In this document: positions 1-62,586 of the stretch, one piece after another
Layout: each line of letters starts with the position of its first letter
Numbering within the stretch: the first letter of the stretch is position 1
From: Treponemataceae bacterium
GTDB taxonomy: Bacteria > Spirochaetota > Spirochaetia > Treponematales > Rectinemataceae
Direction of reading: 5' to 3'
Length of the DNA stretch: 64,000 bases
Assembly: GCA_963678065.2 (NCBI GenBank)
Contig: CAXXVZ010000003.1
Coordinates: 1,184,001-1,248,000, forward strand
Position numbers and translations under genes: made by a program
The notes under the pieces: model-generated
What the model was told of the DNA's origin: nothing
Database searches by the model: none
What the model saw: the letters and a program-made list of their open reading frames with translations, nothing else

Positions 1-482
1 TCGATACGGAATCGGGTGAATGAATCCATGATCCCCGCCAGGAACAGCCTCTGGAATCCCTTCGTCGAAAGGAATACGGAGATCGCGGCGATGTTGAAAA
101 GACCGGAGACCGCCGACGACTCGTCGCCCGTCGCAGGATCGAGGATCGAGGCGGAGCCGAATCCCGAGACCGGTGAGAGATATCCCGCGGCGAGGGAAAG
201 CGAGGAGAAGAGGAGGGTCAGGAAGAAACCCGTCACCGCCCCCGCGAGGAATTCACCGACAAGGGTCAGAAGGTAAGCGGACTCGCTCGCCGGGATGGAG
301 TAGCCCGCGGCCGCCACTGCCGGCATGACGGCGGCGGCCGAAAGGAGGGCGATCCCCGCCTTCGCCGCGCGGGGAATTCCCGGCCCGGAGAAGAGAGGAG
401 CCGTCGCGACGATGCCGGCGATCCTCGCGACCACGCAGGGGAAGATCAGGGCATCGGCGCCGGGGGCGAAGGGAAGTTCCAT
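1..482 (-). CDS. fliR: Flagellar export gate protein FliR (5' part; runs off the window edge)
   Basis: Not in the ORF track. Manual translation from ATG at 482: MELPFAPGADALIFPCVVARIAGIVATAPLFSGPGIPRAAKAGIALL...LVGEFLAGAVTGFF...GFGSASILDPATG, matching FliR motifs (R-x-x-G...APLFS...IP...K, E-x-x-x-G, DP). Starts 1 nt after the fliQ stop. Confidence 0.9.
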   Translation of the reverse strand, partial: MELPFAPGADALIFPCVVARIAGIVATAPLFSGPGIPRAAKAGIALLSAAAVMPAVAAAGYSIPASESAYLLTLVGEFLAGAVTGFFLTLLFSSLSLAAGYLSPVSGFGSASILDPATGDESSAVSGLFNIAAISVFLSTKGFQRLFLAGIMDSFTRFRI

Positions 483-483
483 G

Positions 484-753
484 TCAGCGCGCCATCGACG
501 GGATGAGGGCGAATATCTGTCGGGTATAGTCCCCGAGACTTCCGAGAATCCAGCCGCCGAGCAGGGCCAGGATGAGAAGCACGGCGGCGAGCTTCGGAAC
601 GAAGGAGATGGCCTGGTCCTGAACCGCGGTCACGGCCTGGATGATGGCGGCGAGGAGGCCGGCGAGGAGGGCAGCCCCGAGCACAGGGGCGGACAGTATC
701 AAAATTTTGAAAAGTCCCGAACGGAGGAGGGCCGCGAAATCCGGTGCGTGCAT
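484..753 (-). CDS. fliQ: Flagellar export gate protein FliQ
   Basis: 89 aa hydrophobic protein with QAVTAVQDQAISFVPKL (FliQ QAxTQIQEQTLxFVPK motif); lies between fliP and fliR. Confidence 0.95.
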   Translation of the reverse strand: MHAPDFAALLRSGLFKILILSAPVLGAALLAGLLAAIIQAVTAVQDQAISFVPKLAAVLLILALLGGWILGSLGDYTRQIFALIPSMAR

Positions 754-766
754 CTTCCCGACCTCC

Positions 767-1600
767 TCACATGAAGGACTGTACGAGCTGCCGTGCCAAG
801 AGTCCCCAGCCGTCGGCGAGGACGAAGACGGCCAGCTTGAAGGGCAGGGAAATCATCGCGGGAGGAACCATGACCATGCCCATGGACATAAGGATGGCCG
901 CGACGACCATGTCGATGACGATGAAGGGTATAAAAAGGAGGATACCGATGCGGAAGGCGACTGTCAGCTCGTGGAGGGCGAAGGCCGGAACGAGGACATA
1001 GGTCGGAACCTCCGCCAGGGTCGCGGGTTTGGGCAGGCCCCTCATCGACATGAACATCCTGATGTTGTCCGGACTCTCTCGCATCTGGTTGTACATGAAG
1101 AGACGGAACGGCTTTTCGGCCTCAGACCAGGCTTGGCCGCTCGAGATGCTCCCCTCGGAGAGCGGCTTCAGGGATCTCTCGTAGACTGTCGTGAAGGTCG
1201 GCCACATGACGAAGACTGTGAGGATGAGGGCGAGCCCGGCCATGATCTGCGCCGAGGGGGCCTGCTGGAGCGAGAGGGCGCGTTTCATGAAATCGAGGAC
1301 GATCGATATCCTGAGGAAACTCGTCGCGAGGATGAGGATGCTCGGCGCCACGGCGAGGACAGTTATGAGGAGGATGAGCTCGACCGATTGGGCGTTTCCG
1401 CTCCCTCCCGAGACCCCCTGTATATTCAAGTCGACAAGAGGAAGTTCCGAAAGGGTGGATGTATCGCCTTTTGCTCCGGCTCCGCGGGCCGCAGAACGCC
1501 CCGCGCTCCCCGGAGCAGCCGCAAAAGCCGGCGTCGCGGCGAGAATGAGGAGGAAAAAGAGAGAGATGCAGGCGATCGGGCGGAGTGCTCCTCGCTTCAT
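767..1600 (-). CDS. fliP: Flagellar export gate protein FliP
   Basis: Signal peptide, then LAVAPSILILATSFLRISIVL, PAFALHELTVAFRIG, IPFIVIDMVVAAILMSMGMVMVPPAMISLPFKL, DGWGLL. Confidence 0.97.
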   Translation of the reverse strand: MKRGALRPIACISLFFLLILAATPAFAAAPGSAGRSAARGAGAKGDTSTLSELPLVDLNIQGVSGGSGNAQSVELILLITVLAVAPSILILATSFLRISIVLDFMKRALSLQQAPSAQIMAGLALILTVFVMWPTFTTVYERSLKPLSEGSISSGQAWSEAEKPFRLFMYNQMRESPDNIRMFMSMRGLPKPATLAEVPTYVLVPAFALHELTVAFRIGILLFIPFIVIDMVVAAILMSMGMVMVPPAMISLPFKLAVFVLADGWGLLARQLVQSFM

Positions 1601-2358
1601 CGATCTCCCCCTTTCCGATATTTGTCGAGTCTCCCTCTCTGGGCAAAGAGGATGCCGCGGGCTGCATCTCCGGCGCCGGAAGATCCACTGCCAACTCCGC
1701 GACCGGCGTCCCGGGGTTTTCCCGCCACCGCGCCCGCCCCTTTCCTCCCAGGCCCCGAGGCCGAGAGAAGGCGGCGAAGACTGAGGCCGAGGGAGTGGGA
1801 AAAAGAGCCGGACGAGGCTCGGCCCCGGATGGGCGGGGCTGATTTTGCGCGGCGCAGGAGATCCTGCACGAGTTCGGGATCATCCAGAGTATCGATGAGA
1901 CTGACCGAGGATTCGGAGGTCGCGACGAGCCATGCCTTGGATCCGAGACAGACGGCGTAGACGGCTTTCCCCGGGCCGAGGGCTGCCGAAGCCGCCACCT
2001 TGATCGGGCTGTCTCCCTCATCGGCGCGCGGCGAGGACTTCCGGACAAGGACTATGGCCAGATAGACTCCGCCGGCGAGGAAGAAGAGGACGATGACGAT
2101 GCGAAGGAGAGATGATGATCCCGGAGCGGAGCCTTGTTTCGCGGGGTTCCCTGCCCCAGCCCCATCGAGAAGGATGGTCTTTTCCTCTTGCTGGCCAAAG
2201 ACTGCTGCGCCCGCGGTCGCGTTGCCGGTGCCCCCGACGGCGGCACTGGACTGGGCGCAGACGAGGCTCAAAGGAAGGACGAGCGCGAAAAGACAAAGAA
2301 TGAGAGCCTTGGATTTCAAAAAATCCTCCCCTTGCAGCGGCATGATCCGTTCACCCAA
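1597..2358 (-). CDS. fliO: FliO/FliZ-family export gate chaperone (start may be ATG at 2343)
   Basis: Signal-like N-terminus, one TM helix, then IKVAASAALGPGKAVYAVCLGSKAWLVATSESSVSLIDTL (FliO pattern). Stop overlaps the fliP ATG (ATGA). Confidence 0.85.
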   Translation of the reverse strand: MGERIMPLQGEDFLKSKALILCLFALVLPLSLVCAQSSAAVGGTGNATAGAAVFGQQEEKTILLDGAGAGNPAKQGSAPGSSSLLRIVIVLFFLAGGVYLAIVLVRKSSPRADEGDSPIKVAASAALGPGKAVYAVCLGSKAWLVATSESSVSLIDTLDDPELVQDLLRRAKSAPPIRGRASSGSFSHSLGLSLRRLLSASGPGRKGAGAVAGKPRDAGRGVGSGSSGAGDAARGILFAQRGRLDKYRKGGDR

Positions 2359-2436
2359 GGGCCATCCTGACCCTGATCAAGAAACGGCCCGAACGGAATC
2401 TGCCCGCGCCCCCTTCAGTTCCGGAGCGCTTCAAGT

Positions 2437-3948
2437 TTACTTTATGGCCCCGAAGGATGCAAGCGAAACGCCTTTTCCGCTGCCGGCGCGGGCGAGACAG
2501 CCCCATGCGGCGGGGACAGACCCGTCGAGCACGCAGAGTTCCCGGATTTCCGTCCGGACGCCCGCATCCGCGCAGGCGGCATATTCTCCGTATTCCATGC
2601 TCATCGGGGGGCCGGCTACCTTGCGCAGAGGCAAGAGCCGGCGCATAGCCTCCCCCTCCACGAGCCAGGCAAGTCTTTCGGAGCTTCCCTCGCTGAAACA
2701 GACGTCGAAATTGAAACTGAAATAGTGTTCGGGAAGATCGTGCACAAAACAGTTCCCCGCGCTGATTCCCGGGGACATTCCTCCCGGGGGCACAGAGAGG
2801 GGCGCGGGAAAAACATGAAAGGCGACGAGGAAGGCCGCTGTCCAGGCGAGCGCGAACTCCTGGATACAGAGTGAGGCGAAGGGGTCGAAGCCTGCCAGGC
2901 CGGGATCGAGGTCCGCGGAAGCGATGAGGGCATCGGCGAGCCGGGGGCCGAGGATGAGGCCGGCGTTTCCTTCCTGACCGCCAGGGCAGGCAAATCGGAT
3001 TCCTGTCACCCGGTCCCGGTGGCTGACCGACCACCCCGTCATGCCAGGGTCGGCCACGGCTCCCTCATCCCGGGTCGCGACAGACAGAAGGGCAATCTTC
3101 ACATCGAGACCCGATGCCTTCGAGAAGGCATCCGACAAGCCCTCCTCGTGGCGGCTGACCCTCGCCGCGAGGATGCTCCGATAGAGATCTCCGAACGACT
3201 GTCCTTCTTCTGGTTCCCGTATTCTGAGGACATCCCTCTCGCCTAGATGCCTCCACTGCGCCGCGTCTACGTCGAGCACCCCGATAACCGGGCGCAGGGG
3301 AACAGGCACAGGGCATGGCGACGGGTAGGAAGAGGGACGCGCGTAGGCGCCGAGGCCCCGGGGCAGGGCTGCCGCAAGCACAATATATCCAATAAAACTA
3401 CTTTTATATATATCTATTTGTGCACACAAACAGATACTGTCAAAACGATAATCCATTTCAGGAAAATAGCTTGCCTCTTTGTTCCTTTCGACGGAAAAAT
3501 CCATGCCGAAGGCTGGAGGCAGGGCGCACAATACCGCATCCCGAAGGATTCCATCCGTCTTTTCCATGACCTCGGACTCGAGGAGGCTGAGAGCCCGTTC
3601 GAGCCTGCCGCAGCCTCCCGGGCCCTTGCCACCCCCGAGCAGCCCGTCAAGAACGAAAAACGTGAGGCCGGGATCGAAGGACACGCGCAGCGACACCGTC
3701 AGACCCGAAGGGTGGAGCGTCGAGCCGGCGGCAGCGCTGCAGACTTCGAAGCCAAGACTGTAGGGAAAAAACACTGCTTCATCAGGGAAGGCCGAGACCG
3801 ACGACAGGACTGCCCTTACGGCCGAACCAGACAGTTCCGGAAACCTTGGCGCCACGGACTCGGCAAAACCTTCGGCGAAGAGGATTCCGCGGCCCAGAAT
3901 CCGTTCGGTCTCGACTCCGGGAGCGCCCAGCGCGGACTCCAGCCTCAT
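2437..3948 (-). CDS. Divergent C-ring protein, apparent FliM-FliY(FliN) fusion lacking the CheY-binding N-terminus
   Basis: FliM middle-domain motif LDGLLGGGKG...RALSLLESEVM; SpoA-like VPLRPVIGVLDVDAAQWRHLGERDVLRI; a second CheC-like block (LSDAFSKASGLDVKI...GLILGPRLADALI...CIQEF); a degenerate SpoA-like tail (SMEYG...ELCVLD...FG). Occupies the fliM-fliY position before fliO. Confidence 0.65.
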   Translation of the reverse strand: MRLESALGAPGVETERILGRGILFAEGFAESVAPRFPELSGSAVRAVLSSVSAFPDEAVFFPYSLGFEVCSAAAGSTLHPSGLTVSLRVSFDPGLTFFVLDGLLGGGKGPGGCGRLERALSLLESEVMEKTDGILRDAVLCALPPAFGMDFSVERNKEASYFPEMDYRFDSICLCAQIDIYKSSFIGYIVLAAALPRGLGAYARPSSYPSPCPVPVPLRPVIGVLDVDAAQWRHLGERDVLRIREPEEGQSFGDLYRSILAARVSRHEEGLSDAFSKASGLDVKIALLSVATRDEGAVADPGMTGWSVSHRDRVTGIRFACPGGQEGNAGLILGPRLADALIASADLDPGLAGFDPFASLCIQEFALAWTAAFLVAFHVFPAPLSVPPGGMSPGISAGNCFVHDLPEHYFSFNFDVCFSEGSSERLAWLVEGEAMRRLLPLRKVAGPPMSMEYGEYAACADAGVRTEIRELCVLDGSVPAAWGCLARAGSGKGVSLASFGAIK

Positions 3949-4328
3949 AGGGCTTCCCTCTTGCGTTTTTCCGCCACTCTCGCCTCTTTCTGCCTGCGGT
4001 CGACCAGGCGTTCGAGGACGAGCCGCTCTGTGCGGGCCTCCCCGTAGAGTCCCAGAGCGGAAGCCAGCCCCTCTTCCGCCCCGGCTCTCTGCGCTTCGAG
4101 GGCGAGCCGCTCGGTTTCCTTCTTCTCGATAAAGGCCCCGAGGTTGTCGATCGCCGAGAGCGTTTCGGCCGCCGGCCTCTCACCGGGCGGGAAATGGGAA
4201 TTTTCCGAAAGTCGATCCCGGATTCCCGCGAGCCTTCCCGAAACCTCGGCGACCCGCATGCCTGCGAGATCCTCTCTGTATTCCCTGAGCTCATGCATCC
4301 ATTCAGGAAGGGGATCGCCGGTTTTCAT
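3945..4328 (-). CDS. fliJ: FliJ-like coiled-coil export protein
   Basis: 127 aa helical protein directly after fliI (ATGA overlap); LRE+REx...ERLVLERL pattern resembles FliJ. Confidence 0.7.
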   Translation of the reverse strand: MKTGDPLPEWMHELREYREDLAGMRVAEVSGRLAGIRDRLSENSHFPPGERPAAETLSAIDNLGAFIEKKETERLALEAQRAGAEEGLASALGLYGEARTERLVLERLVDRRQKEARVAEKRKREAL

Positions 4329-5662
4329 GCTTTGGTTCCACCATTGACTTCTGTATGTCTGAAAATAGACAACATTTCATCCATGATTGCGTCAAGCCCG
4401 AAGCTTTCACGCCTTTCCTGGGCCAGGAAGCTGTCGATCCGGGGCTTCAGGAGGATCGCTTCGTCGACTTCCGCGTTCGATCCGCGCACGTAGGCGCCCA
4501 CAGCTATCATATCTTCGTACCGCTCGTAGACTGCGAGAGTCTTCCGTATCCGTTTCATGAGGAGGAGTTCGCCGCTCTCCGTCACCGCAGTTTCGACCCT
4601 GGATACCGATTTGAGCGGGTCCACGGCCGGATACTGGCCGCGCTCGGCGAGACTCCGCGAGAGCACGATGTGGCCATCGAGCATGGACCGGAGGGCGTCC
4701 GCGATCGGCTCGTCGGGATCGTCCCCCTCCACCAGCACGGAATAGATGCCGGTTATGGAGCCCGAATCTGAAGTCCCGGCCCGCTCCAGAAGGCGCGGCA
4801 GGAGGTCGAAGACGCTGGGTGGATAGCCCCGGGCGGAGGCCGGTTCGCCGGAGGCGAGACCGATTTCGCGCTGCGCTTTCGCGAGCCGCGACAGGGAATC
4901 GAAGACAAGGAGGACATCGAGCCCTTGCTCCCGGAAGTACTCGGCCGCCGCGGTGGCGAGGAGGGCTCCCCTGATCCGGGCCAGCGCGGGGCTGTCCGAG
5001 GTCGAGACGACGACGACGGAGCGGGCCAGTCCTTCCGCTCCGAGTTCGCTCTCCACGAACTCGCGGACCTCGCGTCCCCTCTCTCCGATGAGGGCGATCA
5101 CATTGACGTCGGCCTTGCCTCCCCGCGCCATCATGCCGAGGAGAGTGCTCTTGCCGACGCCGGAGCCCGCGAAAACGCCGATCCTCTGGCCCAGGCCGAG
5201 GGGAACCATGCCGTCGACAGCCTTGACGCCCGTGAGGAAACGGCTGTCTATCCTCCTGCGCGACAGAGGTTCGGGAGCGGCCGCCCTGAGATTCCGGTAT
5301 TCGCCTTCAGTCACAGGGGGAAGGCCGTCCAGCGGCCTTCCCCGGGAGTCGATCACCCGTCCGAGAAGGGAGGATGACATCGCGACGCCGGCGGCGAGGC
5401 CGCTCGCGATGACGGGGCATCCGATTTCGATGCCCTCCATGCTCTCGTAGGACATGAGGCGGACGCTGTCCACGCCGAGTCCCACGACTTCGGCTTCCAT
5501 GGAGCGGCCGGTCTGGGGAATCACGATCCGGCACAATTCGCCGAGGACGGCCCTGGGACCGCGGCTCTCCACGAGAAGGCCGCGAACCATCGTGACCCGG
5601 CCGGTGTGGAGGATGGGATTGGCGTTCGTGGCCGCTTCGATAGCCGGCGCAAGGAGGCCCAT
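4325..5662 (-). CDS. fliI: Flagellar/type III export ATPase FliI
   Basis: Walker A GSGVGKST, LIGERGREV, VFDSLSRLAKAQREIGL, GYPPSVF, LLERAG, LDGHIVLSRSLA, YPAVD. Start set at ATG 5662 behind GAGGGTGA. Confidence 0.96.
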   Translation of the reverse strand: MGLLAPAIEAATNANPILHTGRVTMVRGLLVESRGPRAVLGELCRIVIPQTGRSMEAEVVGLGVDSVRLMSYESMEGIEIGCPVIASGLAAGVAMSSSLLGRVIDSRGRPLDGLPPVTEGEYRNLRAAAPEPLSRRRIDSRFLTGVKAVDGMVPLGLGQRIGVFAGSGVGKSTLLGMMARGGKADVNVIALIGERGREVREFVESELGAEGLARSVVVVSTSDSPALARIRGALLATAAAEYFREQGLDVLLVFDSLSRLAKAQREIGLASGEPASARGYPPSVFDLLPRLLERAGTSDSGSITGIYSVLVEGDDPDEPIADALRSMLDGHIVLSRSLAERGQYPAVDPLKSVSRVETAVTESGELLLMKRIRKTLAVYERYEDMIAVGAYVRGSNAEVDEAILLKPRIDSFLAQERRESFGLDAIMDEMLSIFRHTEVNGGTKA

Positions 5663-5667
5663 CGCGA

Positions 5668-6540
5668 TCACCCTCTTGAAGCCGCGGCGCCGAGGTCCGC
5701 GACAATCGGTCCGGGCGCCGGCCCGCGCAGGACAGTCTCCATGGCTGCGAGCATCGACTCGATCCGCGCGTCGATCCACCCGGAAGATGTCTCGAGGACG
5801 CAGCCGCCGGGCTGAATGGCGGGATCGGCCTCTATCCGCACTCCGCTCGAGGCAATCCCGACTCCCGGGGCGGCGGAAGTTTCATGGCCGAGGGCGGCGC
5901 GGACAGCCTCGAGGTCGGCGGGGGAAACCGAGAGAAGGAGGGGTCGGGCGTTCCCGAGGAGGGAGAGGAGTCTGGGAACTGTTTCCGCGACGACAGCGCG
6001 GGAGTCGGCGCAGGCGCCACCCACAATCTTGCGCGCCACGAGGAGAGAGAGCTCGATGAGTTCGGCTCCGGCGTCCCTGATGGCGGAGCTCCGGGTCGCC
6101 TCCGCCCGCGAGTGGATGGCCTCGATCGAGGCGACGATGGAGCGCGCCCGATCCATGCCCTGGGCGAAACCCCGCGCTTCGCCTTCGGCGCGGACTTTTT
6201 CACGTTCCAGATCCGCCTGTCCCCTGGCAGTCGCGAGCAATTCATCGGCCTCGCGGCGCGCCTCGCCGAGAATGCGGGCGGTTTGAGCCTCCATATTCGC
6301 CATGGACTCAGCTTCATACCGGGCGAGTCTTCCGCGGATTTCCTTTTCCGCGTCGGAGAGGGCCTGGGCGCGGGCTTCCTCGTAGACAAGGATTGCCTGT
6401 TCGCGCCACTGTGCCTTGAAAATCCCGATCTCGCCGAGAGCTTCCGACTCGGCGTCGAAAGCGAAAGCCTCCGTCCGTTCCGGCTTCACGTCCGCTGTCG
6501 GGTACGGCGCGTCGCCTTCCGGTGAGTGCAGCGTGCTCAT
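5668..6540 (-). CDS. fliH: Flagellar export ATPase regulator FliH
   Basis: GxxxG-type repeat (EGEARGFAQG), C-terminal DPAIQPGGCVLETSSGWIDARIESML; spirochaete-like PTAD...FKAQW N-terminus. Confidence 0.92.
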   Translation of the reverse strand: MSTLHSPEGDAPYPTADVKPERTEAFAFDAESEALGEIGIFKAQWREQAILVYEEARAQALSDAEKEIRGRLARYEAESMANMEAQTARILGEARREADELLATARGQADLEREKVRAEGEARGFAQGMDRARSIVASIEAIHSRAEATRSSAIRDAGAELIELSLLVARKIVGGACADSRAVVAETVPRLLSLLGNARPLLLSVSPADLEAVRAALGHETSAAPGVGIASSGVRIEADPAIQPGGCVLETSSGWIDARIESMLAAMETVLRGPAPGPIVADLGAAASRG

Positions 6541-7238
6541 TGTTTTTCGGTCGCCCTGCCGCCGGCTCGGGCCTCGGCCCGGCCCGCCTTCCGCAGAGCC
6601 TCCCTGATGGCCCTGGCGATGCCTGGATGGCCCGAATCGAGCTCACCCATGATTCTCCTGCCCGACTGGCCGTCGACGCATTCCAGGATGCGGGCGAGGG
6701 ATTCGGGGCCGGATTCCGTTCCGGAATCCGGGGATTTCCTCCCATCGGGGCAGGAGGCTTCTTCTCTCGCTGTCCTTCCCTTTCCCGCGGGGCCGAGCCG
6801 GGTCTCCAGCACGCGCTCCACAGTCCTGACAGTTTCCGGGGCCGCCCTGTCGATGGAAGCAATGCGCCGCGCGATGTCCGATTGCATGGCTGCGGGGAGA
6901 TTGCGCAGGACGAAGGCCGCCCCTTCCGGCTCCATTCTGGAAAGCACGAGGGCTATGGTCTGAGGATGTTCGGAGCCCACAAGTTCGAGAATCCGCCCGG
7001 GATCGGCCTCTCCGGAAGCTTCCGTTGCCCGGTTCCTGTCCATGTGACCGCAGAAGGACCTCAGGGCATCGTACTTTTCGTCCTGATCGATGCAGTCCAG
7101 ACAGGAGATCTCGGCGGCGAGGCACTCTACCTCGGAGGGCGCGAGATGTCGGAAAACCTCCGCCGAGATGTCGGAGCCCAGTGTCACGAGGAGAAGGGCC
7201 GCCTTCCTGCGGGAACCCTGCGCGTCGCCGCCACTCAT
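6537..7238 (-). CDS. fliG: FliG, C-terminally truncated (N and middle domains only)
   Basis: KAALLLVTLG...AEVFRHL, EHPQTIALVLS, IARRIASIDR...VERVLE, ARILECVD. Ends where the MFxF motif and torque domain should begin. ATG at 7238 overlaps the fliF stop; stop overlaps the fliH ATG. Confidence 0.88.
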   Translation of the reverse strand: MSGGDAQGSRRKAALLLVTLGSDISAEVFRHLAPSEVECLAAEISCLDCIDQDEKYDALRSFCGHMDRNRATEASGEADPGRILELVGSEHPQTIALVLSRMEPEGAAFVLRNLPAAMQSDIARRIASIDRAAPETVRTVERVLETRLGPAGKGRTAREEASCPDGRKSPDSGTESGPESLARILECVDGQSGRRIMGELDSGHPGIARAIREALRKAGRAEARAGGRATEKQ

Positions 7239-8704
7239 GATTCGTTTTCCTCGCTGATCCACGAGCGGATGAGTCGGGCGACCTCGGCAGGGTCCTTGCG
7301 CGCCAGCTCGGCCGCTTCCTCCTGCAGACTGGCGCGGCGCCGCTCGAGAAGCTCGGTGTCGTCGGGGCTCATCCCCGCGCCGTCGCGCCCGGCTCCCGCG
7401 CCGGAGTTACGCGCGAGGCGGGCCTTCGTCAGGGAAACGACAAGAAGCACAAAAAGCACAAGAGCGAGGGCCGCGGCAGCCACGAAACCCGTCCGGTAGA
7501 GCCTGTCCGAATCCGCCTTGGCGAAATACGCCGCGTCCTCTGCTTTGAACTGGGCTGTCCTGTCGAAGGGGATGTTGCGGACAGTGAGCGAGTCGCCGCG
7601 CGCGGGCTTGAAGCCGACAGCGTCGCGGATGAGTTCCTCTGCCTGGGAGAGCTCGGCCGCCGGAATGGGGCTGTACTCCCTCTCTATCCCTCCGCGGGGA
7701 TTCACGAGGGGCTTCCCTTTCATGTCGTAGGAGGTTTTCCACAGGCCGTCTATGTTGACCGAGACGGAGATCCTGCCGATGAAGGGCGTGGATTCTTCGT
7801 CGATGCGGCCTGTGCCGGGCGCCGCGCTGCCGACCGCCGGGCCTGACGCATCCGTCTCGATCCTGACGGCGAGGTCGCGCACACGGTCGGCAGTGTAGAT
7901 CTGCTGGAGGGTTTTCAGGACCTGAGCCCGGTAACGCGATTCCATCTCGCGGACAAGCTTCTGCCGGGCGACCGTCTTTTCCAGATGGCCGAGGGGGGCT
8001 GATTCCGTCGCATCGTCCAGGACGACTCCGTCGGAATCCGTTATGACGACATTGTCGGCGGAGAGCCCTTCCACGGCGAAGCAGAGTATCCTGCGCACGC
8101 CCGCTATCTTGGCGGGGTTGCGCGCGAAATCGGAACCGGACTTCGTCTGGAGGACGACCGAGGCGGTGACCGGGTTCTGGTCTTCGCTGAAGAGTTCCTT
8201 TTCGGGCATGACGATGGCGACGTCGGCCCTCTCGATATCGTCTATGGACTCGATGTGGCGCTTTACTGCGGCCGTGACGGCTCTTCTGAGATTGACGTTC
8301 CGTTCGAAGTCGGTCGCTGTCCAGCGCTCCATATCGAAGATCGCCCAGGGATCTGTGCCGGTGGGCAGAAGGTCGTCGCGGATGAGGAGGGATCTCGCCC
8401 TGAGGGCGGAAGCCGCGTCGGGCGCGTAGAGGAAGTTTCCGTCGCGCAGCTCGTAGCTCACATTTCCGGCGTCGAGGCTGTGGGTCATCCTGACGAGGAG
8501 GCTCTGGTCTTTGACGGGGGCTCCGAGAATGCGCACCGAAGCCCGGCCCGCCCCGCCGCCCGGAAAAGCTCCGGCCAGGGCGAGAATGAGGATGGCGAGG
8601 ACGAGAACCGCCGCACAGGCGGCGATGAGCGCGATGATGTTGAAGCCGGACTTCTGCCTGAGATCTTTGATCCGCGCGGCGAGTCCATCGATGAATCCGT
8701 TCAT
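7235..8704 (-). CDS. fliF: MS-ring protein FliF (shortened)
   Basis: Two TM segments; DPWAIFDMERWTATDFERNVNLRRA, IVMPEKELF, VTASVVL, AVEGLSADNVVITD, AVGFKPARGDSLTV, and C-terminal ARKDPAEVARLIRSWISEE (spirochaete FliF tail). Confidence 0.93.
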   Translation of the reverse strand: MNGFIDGLAARIKDLRQKSGFNIIALIAACAAVLVLAILILALAGAFPGGGAGRASVRILGAPVKDQSLLVRMTHSLDAGNVSYELRDGNFLYAPDAASALRARSLLIRDDLLPTGTDPWAIFDMERWTATDFERNVNLRRAVTAAVKRHIESIDDIERADVAIVMPEKELFSEDQNPVTASVVLQTKSGSDFARNPAKIAGVRRILCFAVEGLSADNVVITDSDGVVLDDATESAPLGHLEKTVARQKLVREMESRYRAQVLKTLQQIYTADRVRDLAVRIETDASGPAVGSAAPGTGRIDEESTPFIGRISVSVNIDGLWKTSYDMKGKPLVNPRGGIEREYSPIPAAELSQAEELIRDAVGFKPARGDSLTVRNIPFDRTAQFKAEDAAYFAKADSDRLYRTGFVAAAALALVLFVLLVVSLTKARLARNSGAGAGRDGAGMSPDDTELLERRRASLQEEAAELARKDPAEVARLIRSWISEENES

Positions 8705-8732
8705 TTCCCCTCCCCCGCAAGCGTTCCGGAAA

Positions 8733-10106
8733 CTACAGAATGTACTTGCTCAAATCCTGCCTCTCCGCGAAGTCGATAAATTTCGAGTCGACGTAGGCCG
8801 CGTCCACCACGACGCTGGTCCCCGCGCGGTCGGGAGCCTCGAAGGAGATGTCCTCGAGGAGTCTCTCCATGACCGTGTGGAGGCGCCTCGCGCCGATGTT
8901 TTCGGTGGTGGCGTTCGCCTGGGCGGCGATCGAAGCGACGCGGGAAACCGCTTCCGGCGAAATTTCGACACTGAGGCCTTCGGTCGCGAGGAGCTCCACG
9001 TACTGGGTCACGAGAGCGTTCTTCGGCTCGGTCAGTATCCTCTCGAAATCCCTGGCCGTGAGGTCCTCGAGCTCCACCCTGATGGGAAAGCGCCCCTGTA
9101 GCTCGGGTATGAGGTCTTCGGGCTTGGAGACGTTGAAGGCTCCCGCGGCTATGAAGAGGATGTGGGAGGTGTCGACGGGCCCCCACTTGGTCGAGACCGT
9201 CGAGCCCTCCACGATGGGCAGGATGTCCCGCTGCACGCCCTCGCGGGAGACGTCGATGCCGCCTGCGCTCCGGCCTTCCCGGTTGGCGATCTTGTCGAAC
9301 TCGTCGATGAAGACGATGCCCATCTCCTGGACGCGGCGCCTCGCCTCCTCGGCGGCGTTGTCGGAATCGACGAGCTTGTCCATCTCCTCGGCCTCGAGGA
9401 TGCGGCGGGCATCCGCCACGTTCACGGCTTTCTTCTTTTTCTTGCCGCCGAACATGGATGTGATGGAGCCGATGGCGGCCTCCATATCCTCCATCTTCGC
9501 GCCGGAGAATATTTCGAGCCCCGGCTGCTGAGCCTGGATGTTCAGTTCGACCTCGCGCTTGTCGAGGGCCCCTGAATGGAGAAGTTTGCGGAATTTCTCG
9601 CGGGAGTCCGTCTGAAAGCCGGTATCACCCGCGACATAGGTGGCCTGGGTGGGGCCTATGGGCTCGACCGAACCCTTGATCCCCGGCAAAAGGAGGTCGA
9701 GAAGCCTCTCCTCGGCCCTGCGCTTCGACTCCTCCTGCACTCCCTGGCGCATCTCTTCCTTGACGGCGGCGATGCCGGCGGCCATGAGGTCGCGTATCAT
9801 CGATTCGACATCGCGCCCGACATAGCCGACCTCGGTGTACTTGGTGGCCTCGACCTTGATGAAGGGGGCCCCGCAGAGCTTGGCGAGGCGCCGCGCGATC
9901 TCGGTCTTGCCGACGCCGGTGGGACCGATCATGAGGATGTTCTTGGGGATGATGTCGGCGCGCATGTCCTCGGAGAGACGCTGGCGGCGCATGCGGTTGC
10001 GCAGGGCGAGGGCTACCGCGCGCTTCGCCCTGGCCTGGCCGACGATGTAGCGGTCGAGTTCCCCGACTATCCATTTCGGGGTCATGCTCTCGAAGGAGAC
10101 GCTCAT
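8733..10106 (-). CDS. hslU: HslU ATP-dependent protease ATPase subunit
   Basis: [56 protein letters not shown]-terminus. Confidence 0.98.
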
Positions 10107-57763: not shown

Positions 57764-58062
57764 GGTTTCTCCTCGATCGCAGACCTGGATTCGCGCTTCC
57801 ATTCCGAGACAAAATACTCGTATGCGGCCACCGTGGCAGACATGACGATGTCGCCGAGCTCCCCCCTGCCGATCCAGTCGTTCCCGTCGGAAACATAGAG
57901 ATGCCCGAGAATTCTTTCCGCATCACCGATGCCGAACTCGGCGTCGCGCGCTCTGCGGAGGACAAGCAGCCTCAGTGTTCCCTCGAACACTTCGCTGTAT
58001 TTCGCCTCGCGCCAGTCGGGATTCTCCGAGGAATCGCCAATACCAGTGCCCTTCATATCCAT
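57760..58062 (-). CDS. Conserved-looking hypothetical protein (~100 aa)
   Basis: ORF whose stop overlaps the GNAT gene start; LYVSDGNDW.GRG motif; upstream promoter-like TTGCAT-16-TATACT. Start uncertain. Confidence 0.65.
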   Translation of the reverse strand: MDMKGTGIGDSSENPDWREAKYSEVFEGTLRLLVLRRARDAEFGIGDAERILGHLYVSDGNDWIGRGELGDIVMSATVAAYEYFVSEWKRESRSAIEEKP

Positions 58063-58095
58063 AGTTTCACCACAATTCCATAGTTCCACCACAAT
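58058..58095. repeat. 19-bp tandem duplication (1 mismatch)
   Basis: TCCATAGTTTCACCACAAT (58058-58076) followed by TCCATAGTTCCACCACAAT (58077-58095). Confidence 0.8.
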
Positions 58096-58415
58096 GCCTG
58101 GATCTGCCGGAAAACGGCTCAGTATATACGGTTTCCCGGATTATGCAAATAAAAACGGCTGCAACCACCCCTTTGGGTCGATTCGGCCTGCACGGCGGGA
58201 AGACGGCCTCAATAAATCGAATATTCAACCAGCCACGGCGGGAGAATGCTGCAAGAACCAACAGAGGGTCAAGTATGACATTGACTGATCTGCGATGGCC
58301 TTGAGTCTCATGCCAGCGGAACCTGCCTGACGTGCAGGCGCCGCGGCCATAGTTCGTTCCTCAACCCTTCACCGTATGGTCATGCCTTTGTTATGGCAAG
58401 CAAATATCGGTTATG

Positions 58416-58433
58416 AATATTAACGATAATATT
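58416..58433. promoter_or_regulatory. Candidate LacI-family operator, upstream copy
   Basis: AATATTAACGATAATATT, a near-perfect palindrome with central CG. Confidence 0.7.
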
Positions 58434-58522
58434 GATGTATTATAGTAAAATACGCAAAATAATGTCATATTAAGTTGTATATCGCAATAAATAACTCTTG
58501 ACAAATTAAGAAACCACATAGA

Positions 58523-58538
58523 ATATTATCGATAATAT
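58523..58538. promoter_or_regulatory. Candidate LacI-family operator overlapping the start codon
   Basis: Perfect palindrome ATATTATCGATAATAT with central CG, downstream of TTGACA (58498-58503) and TAGAAT (58519-58524). Confidence 0.75.
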
Positions 58539-59544
58539 GCGCACTTCACTTAAACAGCTGGCCGACATGAGCGGCTATTCGATCAATACCGTTTCGCGGG
58601 CTCTGCGGAATGAGAGCGACGTAAAAGACGAGACCAAGCTCGCAATCCAGCAGCTTGCCCGGGAGATGGGATACATACCCAACACCGTGGCCAAAAGCCT
58701 GAGAACGGGAAGGACGAATGTGATCGGCGTCGTCTCCGCGGACTCCTCGAATCCCTTCTTCGCGGAAGTGATCCTTGGCATCGAGGATGCCGCCCGCGCG
58801 TGTGATTACCACATACTTCTCGTCAATACGGAGGAGTCTCCGGCACAGGAACGCGAGGCTATCGACGTCCTCGTGGAGCGTCAGGTGGACGGACTGCTCC
58901 TTATGCCGGTATGCGGGGAACACAGCAACGTCGAATACCTCAAAACGCTCGGCATTCCCTTCATCCTCGTGGGCCGGTGGCTCCCGGGGCTTGAAGACCA
59001 CTCGGTCCTGACCGACGAGTACGAAAAGGCCAAGGAGATAACCTCACTGTTCCTGGCGAACGGGCACAGGGACATCCTCCACCTGGCAGGGCCCTCCTTC
59101 GTGAGCAGCTCCTACGACCGGCTGAGGGGATACCGCGACGCCCTCGCGCTCGCGGGTGTCCCTGTCCAGGAGAAACTGATCATCGAGACCGACGGGCATA
59201 CGGAGGACGGCCACCGTCAGATCAATGCCCTGATCCGCAAGGAAATTTCTTTTACGGCCGTCTTCGCCTTCAACGATCTCGTGGCACTCGGCGCGTTGCG
59301 GGCACTCAAGGAGTCAGGCTTCCGCGTGCCGAAGGATATCGAGGTGATGGGCTTCGACGACCTCGACTATTCCCGCTACCTCTACCTGAGCCTGAGTTCT
59401 GTGCGGATACCGAAACAACAGCTGGGTCGCGCCGCTTTCGAAGATCTACGTGAGCACATGCAGGGAATGGAGGTTCCTTACCGGAAAAGAACGCTCGAAT
59501 CCCGCATCATGCTTCGCGAGACCACGTTATTTGAAGAGCCCTGA
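58537..59544 (+). CDS. LacI-family transcriptional regulator
   Basis: SLKQLA..SG.S..TVSRAL, YIPN.VA.SL hinge helix, FAFND..A.G, GFDD. Confidence 0.97.
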   Translation: MRTSLKQLADMSGYSINTVSRALRNESDVKDETKLAIQQLAREMGYIPNTVAKSLRTGRTNVIGVVSADSSNPFFAEVILGIEDAARACDYHILLVNTEESPAQEREAIDVLVERQVDGLLLMPVCGEHSNVEYLKTLGIPFILVGRWLPGLEDHSVLTDEYEKAKEITSLFLANGHRDILHLAGPSFVSSSYDRLRGYRDALALAGVPVQEKLIIETDGHTEDGHRQINALIRKEISFTAVFAFNDLVALGALRALKESGFRVPKDIEVMGFDDLDYSRYLYLSLSSVRIPKQQLGRAAFEDLREHMQGMEVPYRKRTLESRIMLRETTLFEEP

Positions 59545-59568
59545 GGGGCAAGTACAAGGAGGCATCAG

Positions 59569-60822
59569 GTGAAAAGACTGACAGTCATGGCCATGGCCGC
59601 GCTTCTGCTCTTCGTGGGCACATCCGTGGGCGCCGAGGGCGCGGGCAAGCCCAAGGAAATCACATTCTGGTCCCTGTTCACCGGAGGAGACGGCGAGTTC
59701 TTCGACGCGATGGTGGCAGCATTCAACGCTTCGCAGAACGAGATCGTCATGAAGACCGATACGGTCAAGTTCGACAGCTACTATACGAAGCTCACGGCCG
59801 CGCTCGCGGCGAAGACCGCGCCCGACGTCGTGGTGATGCACCAGGACCGGCTACCCGGTTACGTGCCCAACGGGGTCCTGCTTCCTCTCGATGAGTACAT
59901 CAAGAAAACGGGAATCGACATGAACACCTTCGAACCCGGCCCGCTCGCGAATACCAAATTCAACGGCAAGACCTACGCGATCCCGATGGATGTGCACCCC
60001 CTCATCATGTACTACAACAAGACTCTGTTCGCGAAGGCGGGAGTCACCAAGGTTCCCGAAACCCTGCCCGACCTGATCGCCGCGGCGAAGGCCATCCAGG
60101 ACAGGACGGGAGCAATCGGCATCGCGGCGGACAACACGACCGCAACCTACAAGGCCTACACTCTGACCCGCATGTTCATGTCGATGCTCATGGAGCAGGG
60201 TTTCACCACTCTGGACGCCGCCAACGCCAAGGCGAACTTCAACAATGAAGCGGGCATCAAAGCGTATCAGGCCCTCTCGGAAATGGTGAACAAGTACGGC
60301 GTCATACCTGAAGGCCTCGATTATGATTCTTCCGTCGCCGACTTCAAACTGGGAAAGGCTGGCTTCCACTTCAACGGCGTCTGGGTGACGGGCGCATTTG
60401 AGGCTCAGAGCGGTCTCGACTTCGGCGCCGTGAAGTTCCCTGCCTTTTTCGGAAAGAGTGCGGGCTGGGCCGGCTCCCACACCTTCGCCGTGCCGGTACA
60501 GAACAGGATCGAAGAGGATAAAATACTCGCGGTCATGAAATTCATCGACTGGATGACGAACCATGGCGAGATGTGGGCGAAGGCCGGGCATATCCCCACG
60601 AGGAAGACGGTGATCTCGAAGGCCGAGTTCAAGAGCCTTCCCCACCGTGCGGAATACGCTGACGCCGTAAAGTACTCCTTCGCCACTCCCGGGACTCCGA
60701 AGTGGCCGGAATGCTACAATGCGATCTCCGATTCCCTCGAAGAATCCATCGCGCTCAACAAGGACTCGAGGACGGCTCTTGCACAGATGGAAAAAATCAT
60801 CAACGACATTCTGAAGAAGTAA
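59569..60822 (+). CDS. Carbohydrate ABC transporter substrate-binding protein
   Basis: GTG start behind AAGGAGG; signal peptide; APDV, YAIP.D, YYNK.LF, F..GK, G.W (CUT1 SBP pattern). Confidence 0.93.
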   Translation: MKRLTVMAMAALLLFVGTSVGAEGAGKPKEITFWSLFTGGDGEFFDAMVAAFNASQNEIVMKTDTVKFDSYYTKLTAALAAKTAPDVVVMHQDRLPGYVPNGVLLPLDEYIKKTGIDMNTFEPGPLANTKFNGKTYAIPMDVHPLIMYYNKTLFAKAGVTKVPETLPDLIAAAKAIQDRTGAIGIAADNTTATYKAYTLTRMFMSMLMEQGFTTLDAANAKANFNNEAGIKAYQALSEMVNKYGVIPEGLDYDSSVADFKLGKAGFHFNGVWVTGAFEAQSGLDFGAVKFPAFFGKSAGWAGSHTFAVPVQNRIEEDKILAVMKFIDWMTNHGEMWAKAGHIPTRKTVISKAEFKSLPHRAEYADAVKYSFATPGTPKWPECYNAISDSLEESIALNKDSRTALAQMEKIINDILKK

Positions 60823-60842
60823 AGTCGCCTTGCTCCAATCCT

Positions 60843-60882
60843 GCGCGGCGGGGCGCGTCCCAGAGGATGCGTCCCGCCGCGC
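60843..60882 (+). other. GC-rich intercistronic stem-loop after the SBP gene
   Basis: GCGCGGCGGGGCGCGTCC-caga-GGATGCGTCCCGCCGCGC, 18-bp stem including G-U pairs, no U-tract. Confidence 0.7.
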
Positions 60883-60910
60883 GGGCAATCTGCCTCCAGG
60901 GAGAAATTCC

Positions 60911-61780
60911 ATGCATCGCGCCGATCACACGACCAGGGATATCATACTTTTCTCCGCGCCTTTTCTGGTCGTGTACAGTGTATTCCTTGTGTTTCCGGTG
61001 ATCTATGGAATCTACCTGAGCTTCTTCGACTGGAATATCCTGTCGGCAAAGGCTTTCGTGGGGATCAAAAACTACCTGGAGGCATTCAGGGACCAGAAAT
61101 TCCTTTCGTCTCTCGGGCACACCTGCCAATTTGTGCTCTTGTCCACGCCGAGCATCATAATCGTGGGATTCCTGATGGCGCTCGTCGCTGTCCGCCCTTC
61201 GGGCCCGGGCAAGGCGGCCGAGACCATCTTTTTCCTTCCGTACGTTCTGTCGACCGCCGTTGTCGGCACGCTGTGGGGGTGGATTTTCCAGAAAAACTTC
61301 GGACTGCTGAACCAGATTCTGATTCAGGCGGGATTGCGGCCGGTCGGATGGCTCACCGATCCGAAGTACGCCATGATCGCTGTCGCCTGGGCAACTCTGT
61401 GGTGGACGGCGGGCTTCAATATGATTCTCTTCTCGGCCGGAATGAAGCAGATTCCCGATGAAATTTACGATTCCGCGCGCCTCGACGGGGCAGGGAGCTT
61501 CACGACGCTCGTCAGGATCACGATACCGCTTCTCAGGGACACAACGCTGCTCGTTGGCATCCTACAGCTCATCGCTTCGTTCAAGGTATTCGGCCAAGCG
61601 TACGTTATGACTGGTGGGGGTCCCTACGGCAGGACACGGGTGCTGGTCCAGTATGTCTACGAGACCGGATTCAGCTACTTCAGACTGGGCTACGCGTCCG
61701 CGATGTCTATCCTGCTCTTCCTGGTCATCCTGATCATTTCAGCCTTCCAATACTTCGCCAACAAGGACGACGGACGATGA
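60911..61780 (+). CDS. Carbohydrate ABC transporter permease (MalF-like)
   Basis: FVG.KNY, FLPYVLS, EAA loop (YDSARLDGA), MTGGGP, GYASA. Start at ATG 60911. Confidence 0.94.
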   Translation: MHRADHTTRDIILFSAPFLVVYSVFLVFPVIYGIYLSFFDWNILSAKAFVGIKNYLEAFRDQKFLSSLGHTCQFVLLSTPSIIIVGFLMALVAVRPSGPGKAAETIFFLPYVLSTAVVGTLWGWIFQKNFGLLNQILIQAGLRPVGWLTDPKYAMIAVAWATLWWTAGFNMILFSAGMKQIPDEIYDSARLDGAGSFTTLVRITIPLLRDTTLLVGILQLIASFKVFGQAYVMTGGGPYGRTRVLVQYVYETGFSYFRLGYASAMSILLFLVILIISAFQYFANKDDGR

Positions 61781-62586
61781 AAAAGATCATGGGGAACGTA
61801 GCGCTCGTCCTTCTGCTTATCCTCTGGCTCGCGCCCCTCCTTTGGCTCGTCGTAACGTCGCTCAAGGCCGAGAAGGACGTCATGACCGATCGCCTGACCT
61901 TCTTTTCCGCCGCGCCGACCATCGTGAATTACGCGAAGGCCTTCGGGAAAACGGCCATAGGCAGGTGGCTCATGAACTCCGCCATCGTGGCCTCGGTCGC
62001 GACGACACTGACGTTGATACTCGATTCCACGATGGCATTCGTGCTATCCCGCATCAGATTCCGCGGCAGGAACGCGCTTTTCCTCTTCGTGCTGGCGGGT
62101 ATGATGATACCCTTCGAGGTGATCATCATACAGCTTTATCTCCTGTTCAACGCGATGGGGCTCGTCGACTCTCTGGCCGCGGTGGTCATTCCACGCCTGG
62201 CTCTGCCCATCGGTGTATTCATCCTCGCGCAGTTCTTCAACGGTATACCCGTAGCGCTCGAGGAAGCCGCCTACATGGATGGCGCGAACCGTTTCACGGT
62301 ATTCCGCGCCATCATCATCCCGCTGAGCAAGTCGGCCCTTTTCGCCGTCGCCATCCTCTCCTTCGTCAATGCCTGGAACGATTTCCTCTGGCCCCTCGTG
62401 GTGGTCTCCGATTCGGCGAAATACACCGTGACAGTCGGCATCGCCAATTTCCAGGGTACGCACGGCACGGAGTACTCGCTCATCATGGCGGGCGCCGCCA
62501 TCGCGTCCATTCCGCAGGTGGCGATGTACCTCCTGTTCAAGAAAAACATTGTCAAGGGGATAGCCATGACGGGGATAAAAGGGTAG
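61777..62586 (+). CDS. Carbohydrate ABC transporter permease (MalG-like)
   Basis: SLK, NY, NS, MIP, LEEAAYMDGA, WNDFLWP, C-terminal GIKG. Confidence 0.95.
   Translation: MKKIMGNVALVLLLILWLAPLLWLVVTSLKAEKDVMTDRLTFFSAAPTIVNYAKAFGKTAIGRWLMNSAIVASVATTLTLILDSTMAFVLSRIRFRGRNALFLFVLAGMMIPFEVIIIQLYLLFNAMGLVDSLAAVVIPRLALPIGVFILAQFFNGIPVALEEAAYMDGANRFTVFRAIIIPLSKSALFAVAILSFVNAWNDFLWPLVVVSDSAKYTVTVGIANFQGTHGTEYSLIMAGAAIASIPQVAMYLLFKKNIVKGIAMTGIKG

Follow-up and report, generated by a model that had tools for sequence, protein, structure and literature searches.

Organization of the Locus

At the start of the window, which is the whole stretch of 64,000 nucleotides that was analyzed (G000:C3:1184001-1248000), lies a cluster of genes for the type III export core of a spirochete flagellum, and the cluster runs on beyond the window as far as a gene for sigma-28 (Table 1). 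The genome that carries it (G000; 5.27 Mb, also given as 5.3 Mb) is assembled in 5 contigs; its completeness is 99.94% and its estimated contamination 6.72%. According to open reading frame (ORF) calls and Pfam matches, every gene of the cluster is on the minus strand, where it follows a housekeeping backbone of ftsA, ftsZ, dprA/smf, topA, a xerC/D-like gene and hslV.

The original prediction had read the operon as hslU-fliF-fliG-fliH-fliI-fliJ, followed by a fliM-like gene (here the gene for a protein of 503 amino acids, aa) and by fliO-fliP-fliQ-fliR, with a 28-nt spacer after hslU, five ATGA overlaps and no frameshifts. This arrangement was confirmed by the ORF and Pfam reading, in which overlaps join fliF to fliG, fliG to fliH, fliI to fliJ, fliJ to the 503-aa gene and fliO to fliP, and every frame is unbroken. 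All four proteins of the export gate, FlhA, FliP, FliQ and FliR, have their Pfam matches, and an HMM search of the whole genome found this single FlhA. The ATPase complex is represented by FliH, FliI and a FliJ-like protein, the last of which is assigned by its position, by 33% identity over 120 aa to the FliJ of the flagellated relative G004 at the same place in the operon (pairwise E 9e-5), and by a match to the NCBIfam FliJ model that lies below the cut-off (19.8 bits). Of the flhB, flhA, flhF and flhG genes that were to be sought next to the operon, flhA and flhF are present, but FlhB is without its C-terminal domain and the P-loop of the FlhG-like protein is dead. The spacer between hslU and fliF is too small for gene relics, and a scan of its 28 nt gave neither a promoter nor a terminator match, so that transcription probably continues from hslVU into the operon.

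Table 1. Features of the reduced flagellar cluster and its flanks (window positions unless a position on contig C3 is given).
Feature	Position	Strand	Description
hslU	8733..10106	-	Pfam AAA_2/AAA; 73% identity to flagellated relative G004; last housekeeping gene before the cluster
hslU-fliF spacer	8705..8732	-	28 nt, strong, G-rich ribosome-binding site GGGGGAGGGG
fliF	7235..8704	-	489 aa, MS-ring protein; Pfam YscJ_FliF and partial YscJ_FliF_C
fliG, short	6537..7238	-	233 aa from ATG; Pfam FliG_N and FliG_M, no FliG_C
fliH	5668..6540	-	290 aa, export-ATPase stalk; Pfam FliH 62 bits; 31% identity to relatives
fliI	4325..5662	-	445 aa from ATG 5662, export ATPase; Pfam ATP-synt_ab 281 bits and T3SS_ATPase_C
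fliJ-like gene	3945..4328	-	127 aa; without Pfam match
503-aa FliM/FliY-like gene (P0001)	2437..3948	-	occupies the place of fliM and fliY; without Pfam or NCBIfam match
fliO	1597..2358	-	253 aa from TTG start; Pfam FliO 35.6 bits; 33-36% identity to relatives
fliP	767..1600	-	277 aa, export-gate subunit; Pfam FliP 238.8 bits; 66% identity to G004
fliQ	484..753	-	89 aa, export-gate subunit; Pfam Bac_export_3 81 bits
fliR	1..482 (5' part); whole gene G000:C3:1183697-1184482	-	Pfam Bac_export_1 92 bits
flhB	C3 1182897-1183700, outside window	-	267 aa from GTG overlapping the fliR stop; without C-domain
flhA	C3 1180663-1182900, outside window	-	745 aa; Pfam FHIPEP 660 bits
flhF	C3 1179449-1180648, outside window	-	
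flhG-like gene	C3 1178553-1179446, outside window	-	297 aa; P-loop dead
sigma-28 gene (FliA/WhiG)	C3 1177716-1178531, outside window	-	

Comparison With Flagellated Relatives

Two genera of the family that do have flagella (G004 and G013) carry a full flgB-type motility operon on the same backbone, in the order hslV, hslU, flgB-flgC-fliE, fliF-fliG-fliH-fliI-fliJ, a 210-aa gene, fliK, flgD, flgE, fliL, fliM, fliY, fliO-fliP-fliQ-fliR, flhB, flhA, flhF, flhG, fliA and fapA. The cluster in G000 shares this backbone and order, from hslV-hslU via fliF to fliR and on through flhB-flhA-flhF-flhG-fliA, but it lacks flgB-flgC-fliE between hslU and fliF as well as the 210-aa gene, fliK, flgD, flgE and fliL between fliJ and fliO. 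In addition, the single 503-aa gene replaces both fliM and fliY, fapA was not found downstream of fliA, and four proteins are trimmed or inactivated. Judged by gene order, the reduction took place inside the ancestral spirochete flgB-type operon itself, and descent from a motility operon can thus be read gene by gene against flagellated members of the same family.

The kept flagellar proteins are far more diverged than their housekeeping neighbors, as seen when the identity of G000 to G004 is set against that of G004 to G013: the values are 73% vs 76% for HslU and 85% vs 78% for HslV, and 35% vs 90% for FliG, 45% vs 80% for FlhA, 33% vs 71% for FlhB, 30% vs 78% for FlhG, 31% vs 67% for FliH, 47% vs 77% for FliF and 51% vs 85% for FliQ. 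The best-kept parts are catalytic or belong to the gate, namely FliI (60% vs 82%) and FliP (66% vs 72%), together with FlhF (57% vs 64%) and sigma-28 (75% vs 85%; 75-78% to the relatives).

A scan of 31 genomes for rod genes and FlhA placed the cluster in its family setting. Both were found in all 12 genomes of other families and in 8 of the 18 other genera of the family, both were missing from the remaining 10 genera, and G000 was the sole genome with FlhA and no rod.

Axial, Stator, Chemotaxis and Secretin Genes in the Genome

The absence of rod, hook, filament and stator genes, which had been predicted from the locus, extends to the genome as a whole, where nine HMM families and a set of tblastn searches gave no match. 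Whole-genome searches with Flg_bb_rod, Flg_bbr_C, FliE, Flagellin_N, MotB_plug, FliM, FliS and FliW had 0 matches, and FliMN_C had none even at E 0.1, while the control genomes were positive for every searched family and Flg_bb_rod, Flagellin_N, FliS and FliW were found in flagellated relatives as well. For the filament set, this means that flagellin, FliS and FliW have no match in the genome; FlaA and FliD were outside the search. Nothing was returned from G000 by tblastn with a relative's FlgD, FlgE, FliK, FliL, FliM, FliY and FapA. As for the stator, MotB is absent by these searches and the single MotA_ExbB match is an ExbB that adjoins ExbD and a TonB-like gene.

The chemotaxis genes and a possible second, full-length FliG were also to be checked. 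All 3 CheW domains of the genome lie in one cluster (G000:C5:696790-705909; L013:4790-13909, minus strand) with the order CheW, CheR/TPR, CheW, MCP, CheA/REC, CheB and a REC-PAS-GGDEF output protein, a layout that we take to be Wsp-like, with an output by way of c-di-GMP and none to a flagellum. Outside the operon, FliG_C is matched, weakly (33 bits), by a single protein of 367 aa, whose gene adjoins an ABC transporter (G000:C5:75125-76225; L014:9125-10228, plus strand). This protein has homologues in 17 of the 18 other genera of the family and is not a motor FliG, because it is present in 9 of the 10 genera without flagellar genes. In many genomes the gene for the 367-aa protein is directly preceded by a small paralogous ORF.

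Hence a simple split of the operon, in which a normal flagellum would draw its axial and stator genes from elsewhere in the genome, is hardly credible. Flagellated relatives do place flaB and flgG-type genes outside the main operon, but in G000 nine families are without a match in a nearly complete genome, its FliG is without the domain that faces the stator, and the 367-aa protein, the one further match to FliG_C, is shared with non-flagellated genera.

The 367-aa protein also bears on how the reduction relates to the total loss of flagellar genes in the 10 other genera. Its identity is 41-50% between G000 and flagellated genera and 31-41% between G000 and non-flagellated ones, and since G000 is by this measure nearer to the flagellated genera, its reduction is probably separate from that total loss, as far as a comparison of one protein, and not a species tree, can tell.

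The cluster is not an injectisome either. No secretin is found at the locus and no Sct-type core was detected (SctF was outside the search), and with each protein of the core the NCBIfam model for the flagellar family scores higher than its Sct counterpart. The only secretin of the genome belongs to a GspD-E-F-G cluster on another contig. This type II secretion cluster (GspD, GspE, GspF, GspG; G000:C5:1143570-1158001; L016) lies in a stretch of lower third-position GC, and adjoining it is an ORF of 1872 aa with a weak RHS-repeat match. It had been claimed that what is kept corresponds to the core shared with injectisomes, and here the original prediction did not hold: the C-domain that FlhB shares with SctU is gone, and the flagellum-specific FliG (trimmed), FliO, FlhF, FlhG-like protein and sigma-28 are kept.

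Trimmed and Altered Proteins

Several of the kept proteins have lost domains, and three such losses, the truncation of FliG, about 76 residues of FliF and the C-domain of FlhB, had escaped the reading from the letters. In an alignment with two full-length FliF proteins, about 76 residues are gone inside the Pfam YscJ_FliF_C region, the match to which is limited to profile positions 96-147 of 147, and the C-terminal tail is kept; the protein still scores above the NCBIfam fliF cut-off (225.9 vs 129.75). The missing stretch is presumably RBM3, the collar around the rod, and the retained tail is what we take to be the FliG-binding part. The short FliG consists of N and M domains only, and the alignment shows that about 33 residues of the N-domain and the whole C-terminal torque-helix bundle are gone (NCBIfam fliG 119, below the cut-off of 226.7). 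The EHPQ motif of FliG_M, which contacts the GG motif of FliM, is invariant in all short FliG forms. FlhB ends after its linker and before NPTH, matching profile positions 2-245 of 335, so that the whole cytoplasmic C-domain is gone, a domain on which export depends in model flagella and injectisomes; there is no room for it because flhA begins at the flhB stop. In the FlhG-like protein, GLARAGRS stands where a relative has GKGGVGKT, which destroys the nucleotide-binding loop, and no Pfam ATPase family is matched.

The Walker A motif of FliI and the G1 and G4 motifs of FlhF are present, and FliI also has what appear, by eye and against the consensus, to be Walker B-like and catalytic-glutamate stretches. 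The NCBIfam scores are 555.6 for FliI/YscN (above the cut-off of 379.5), 266.9 for fliP (above 217.45), 88.2 for fliQ (cut-off 88.9) and 632.6 for FlhA (below the equivalog cut-off of 772.1). The trimming is targeted, in that the kept proteins are cut where they met parts that have been lost: FliF at the rod collar, FliG at the stator face and FlhB at the switch domain.

The 503-aa FliM/FliY-Like Protein

The protein encoded exactly where the relatives have fliM and fliY matches no Pfam or NCBIfam model, and a word-based search with it returned only itself. An exhaustive HMMER search gave two further clusters, at 46% and 41% identity; the homologues P0004 and P0010 are 44-46% identical, full-length cluster members have 508-555 aa, and many columns are invariant across the three lineages. 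A structure model of the whole protein has a mean pLDDT of 45.2 (from a shallow alignment), and residues 251-442 reach a pLDDT of 70-84 in parts. In a fold search this segment matched CheC and the middle domains of FliM and FliY (159-176 residues, Z 11.7-13.9); the top 11 matches all belong to the CheC/FliM-middle fold family, and the next has Z 5.0.

The N-terminal half aligns by hhalign with the FliM of both relatives over 58-60 columns (E 0.001, 30-33% identity, probability about 21%) and shares with them a conserved D..L.GG stretch; an alignment of the family to FliY lends no support, at a probability of 0.4%. A profile search of the family against PDB sequences had no meaningful match. 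The neighbors of the protein in a language-model space are all FliM/FliN clusters (0.86-0.89), which serves as a lead only, and two short segments, about 220-245 and 468-503, look FliN-like by eye only. We read the 503-aa protein as a fused or replaced, very divergent descendant of FliM/FliY, to judge from its position and modeled fold, and by eye only its FliN-type ends may be strongly reduced. The earlier assignment of a C-ring or sorting platform to this locus needs qualifying, for it depends on a protein that has a CheC/FliM-middle fold in residues 251-442 but is matched by neither the FliM nor the FliN model of Pfam.

Conservation of the Trimmed Forms and Evidence on Selection

The trimmed proteins are not peculiar to this genome. 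FlhB forms of 267 aa make up three further clusters with 98, 57 and 57% identity, all of exactly 267 aa and without gap columns, after which the next matches are canonical (353-357 aa, 27-30% identity). A short FliG without FliG_C occurs in four further clusters (99%, 69%, 73% and 70% identity), followed by a gap to canonical FliG at ≤37% identity; the nearest canonical FliG proteins are labeled in their source as Treponema or Spirochaetaceae. As judged solely from the equal size of the longest source contigs, at least 2 other lineages share the combination of short FliG, 267-aa FlhB and 503-aa protein, at 44-69% identity: a source contig of 1,264,366 bp is common to P0010, P0014 and P0132 and is probably a single contig, while one of 7,021 bp from a metagenome is common to P0004 and P0133 and probably carries a 511-aa homologue of the 503-aa protein together with a 267-aa FlhB. 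A contig of 3,036,746 bp, common to P0006, P0011 and P0131 and again probably a single one, comes from a closely related genome. Profile searches with the 503-aa alignment (genome and metagenome contigs) and the short-FliG alignment (metagenome contigs) gave no confirmed locus, and the 503-aa alignment found only G000 (1/69 genomes in the family, 1/401 in the order and 1/401 in the phylum).

These observations also dispose of an assembly artefact at the junctions, for which there is next to no chance. The genome does consist of 5 contigs with some estimated contamination, but in an independent assembly (run X6) one contig of 15,441 nt is colinear with window 1-9816 across the junctions at issue, metagenome contigs bridge fliP-fliO-503-aa gene, fliI-fliH and fliH-fliG, and the 7,021-bp metagenome contig, judged by equal contig size, probably has the genes for both the 511-aa homologue and the 267-aa FlhB. 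Near-identical sequence was found in sludge and biofilm metagenome runs and also in organism-named runs.

In trees, the short FliG and the short FlhB each form a 100/100 clade, with stems of 2.3-2.5 changes per site, while the crown depth is ≤0.78 for FlhB and 0.38-0.57 for FliG, compared with about 0.7 between canonical spirochete and Bacillota FliG. Long stems with much shallower crowns suggest a burst of change followed by renewed constraint. Near relatives in the contigs of other runs point the same way. Each of the 5 indels found in coding DNA preserves the frame (in fliP one of 6 nt, in the 503-aa gene one of 15 nt, and in the fliG tail three of 9, 9 and 12 nt), and the two whose lengths of 2 nt and 1 nt are not multiples of three lie in the two intergenic spacers, the 1-nt case at depth 3 being possibly an error. 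In run X11 the flagellar pieces differ at 125/6,260 nt (2.0%) and hslU at 19/1,018 nt (1.9%), and in run X17, at depths <5, the figures are 50/3,056 nt (1.6%) and 16/533 nt (3.0%). Within G000, GC content at third codon positions (GC3) exceeds that at second positions (GC2) in every gene of the cluster.

One might suppose instead that the cluster is a non-functional remnant on its way to the total loss that has occurred in 10 other genera of the family. Loss is indeed common in this family, the kept genes are strongly accelerated and their GC3 is lowered, domains have been lost and a P-loop is dead. On the other hand, had point mutations drifted to the divergence seen here, about 49 in-frame stops would be expected in the 12 genes, and there are 0 (Poisson P about 5e-22), with no frameshifts either; the trimmed forms exist elsewhere at 57-69% identity, FlhB even at identical length; coding indels are in frame only and near relatives have diverged in these genes about as in hslU; and the 503-aa protein has many invariant columns in three lineages. 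A mere remnant is therefore improbable, and the evidence supports purifying selection on a reduced set that is common to other lineages. The earlier view that the loss was selective and not random decay agrees with this, and the cluster likely represents a maintained, remodeled machine and not a wreck, to the extent that comparisons of sequences can say.

Proposed Function

That the cluster is maintained by selection for some function is very probable. What this function is can be stated with far less assurance, and the best explanation, to which we give an even chance, is that of an intact but trimmed spirochete flagellar type III export core, a working inner-membrane machine predicted to pass proteins into the periplasm, in a genome where the searches revealed neither axial nor stator genes nor those for the input to a flagellar switch. 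The platform would still be a ring, made of FliF, FliG(N+M) and the 503-aa protein, the last of which would hold FliH, FliI and FliJ under a gate of FlhA, FliPQR and the transmembrane part of FlhB, all made from an operon read through from hslVU. With the rod cap and the FlhB C-domain gone, the gate would work in one mode, not switching between substrate classes, and would release its cargo into the periplasm.

Several points weigh against this explanation. Neither cargo nor an anti-sigma factor was identified, nor any chaperone (FliS gave no match), and a sigma-28 consensus that is seen upstream of the flaB genes of two relatives has 13 matches in the genome, none convincing and most inside ORFs, compared with about 12 expected by a back-of-the-envelope estimate. 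The FlhB C-domain, needed for export in model systems, is gone. FlhA, FlhB, FliG, FliH, FliJ and FliO score below their NCBIfam cut-offs, the SpoA (FliN) domain is undetected by Pfam in the 503-aa protein or anywhere in the genome, and the N-terminal half of the 503-aa protein, modeled on its own, has a pLDDT of only 39.5. Finally, the divergence from relatives relative to the housekeeping neighbors, the scores below cut-off and a cluster GC3 lower than that of housekeeping genes also fit partly relaxed selection.

In the main rival explanation, FliF, FliG(N+M) and the FliM/Y-like protein are kept as a ring platform that exports nothing and, placed by FlhF, serves as a polar landmark, as an organizer of division or shape, or as an assembly checkpoint that signals to sigma-28. 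Flagellar ring proteins and FlhG of Campylobacter influence the site of cell division. FlhF (57%) and sigma-28 (75-78%) are among the best-kept genes, the substrate-handling C-domain of FlhB is lost, searches for cargo handling (FliS, FliW) were negative, and the FliM-binding EHPQ motif is the same in all short FliG forms. However, a scaffold alone could do without FliH, FliI and FliJ, whose ATPase looks catalytically intact, and without FliP, FliQ, FliR and FlhA; FliI and FliP rank with the best-conserved members of the cluster, and the ATP-binding loop of the FlhG-like partner is lost. A role without export seems rather unlikely, and for protein export as the function under selection the arguments from these sequences stand about level.

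The cluster resembles the first step proposed for the origin of injectisomes from flagella. More tentatively, it is possible that a clade of free-living spirochetes has independently repeated this step by reducing the periplasmic flagellum to an inner-membrane machine devoid of rod, stator and needle, and that the result was kept under selection after a burst of remodeling, with a gate that works without the C-domain of FlhB/SctU, commonly regarded as essential. If so, the cluster would represent a new minimal single-mode device for type III export or for cellular organization. It offers a natural experiment on what a minimal type III core comprises, on whether a gate can operate without the FlhB/SctU C-domain and on what role a flagellar core can take after motility is lost. 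If the organism-labeled runs are cultures, the system would be open to cryo-tomography, proteomics and genetics.

Relation to Known Systems

Reduced type III systems have been described in several bacteria. The Myxo type III secretion system (T3SS) of Myxococcales has no needle, secretin, rod, FliG or stator and was interpreted as descending from a stage between the flagellum and the injectisome (Abby and Rocha, 2012; PMC3459982); in Myxococcus xanthus it currently goes by the name of needleless T3SS* and is linked to predation (PMC12075869). Like the cluster in G000, the Myxo system comprises an inner-membrane and cytoplasmic core and no rod, hook, stator, needle or dedicated secretin. The role suggested for it is protein translocation or the building of a structure in the periplasm, and it is regarded as a state after the loss of motility parts. 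In contrast, the Myxo system is given there as a non-flagellar branch in which FliG is altogether absent, whereas the genes of G000 are flagellar orthologues in the ancestral spirochete operon, where a trimmed FliG, FliO, FlhF, an FlhG-like protein and sigma-28 are kept and the FlhB/SctU C-domain is gone.

Two other systems are flagellar by descent. Buchnera aphidicola is non-motile and expresses basal-body and export genes without flagellin, and the resulting structures are suspected to be protein transporters (PMC8109811). By that account it keeps structural genes of the basal body in a reduced endosymbiont, in contrast to the 5.3-Mb genome studied here, in which no axial genes were found. 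The basal-body genes kept in Buchnera are reportedly those of the rod and hook. The non-flagellated, free-living Lysobacter enzymogenes OH11 keeps flhA, flhB, fliP, fliQ, fliR and fliI, and these flagellar T3SS (FT3SS)-like genes are expressed and needed to secrete non-flagellar proteins, toxins among them (PMC7688988). OH11 is described there as having flgC, flgG, flgE, flgD, flgH, flgI and fliN and as lacking chiefly fliC, with no recognizable FliH or FliJ, and the situation in G000 is the reverse, in that no axial part was found and FliH, FliI and a FliJ-like protein are present. A hat structure related to the fT3SS, to which no function is assigned, has been seen by tomography (PMC9380563).

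Hence the known flagellar remnants either keep axial parts (Buchnera and Lysobacter) or belong to a separate, non-flagellar branch (Myxococcus). On the evidence of its genes, the cluster in G000 differs from all of these in being flagellar by descent and position, in having no axial genes, in its trimmed FliG and in the loss of the FlhB C-domain. Searches of open-access literature found no description of such a spirochete system.

Additional Observations

Beyond the sigma-28 gene, three of four ORFs, long, on the minus strand and of 210, 220 and 310 aa (G000:C3:1174412-1176803; L003:10412-12803), have no family match and an odd GC distribution over codon positions; these three may not be genes but only mirror coding sequence in a different frame or on the opposite strand, and they are not counted as parts of the cluster. 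The first ORF after fliA (210 aa, L003:12751-13383) has homologues at the same place in flagellated relatives, with 29-41% identity.

The flaB loci of the relatives (L019-L028; G004, G009, G012 and G013) have 5' leaders of at least 200 nt, which have conserved blocks in common and, close to the start codon, repeats of an AAGGA motif that may resemble CsrA sites, and two of the leaders show a TAAA-N15-CCGATA promoter. Within the window, at 58001-62000, GC content falls to 0.55-0.57, compared with about 0.63 in the remainder.

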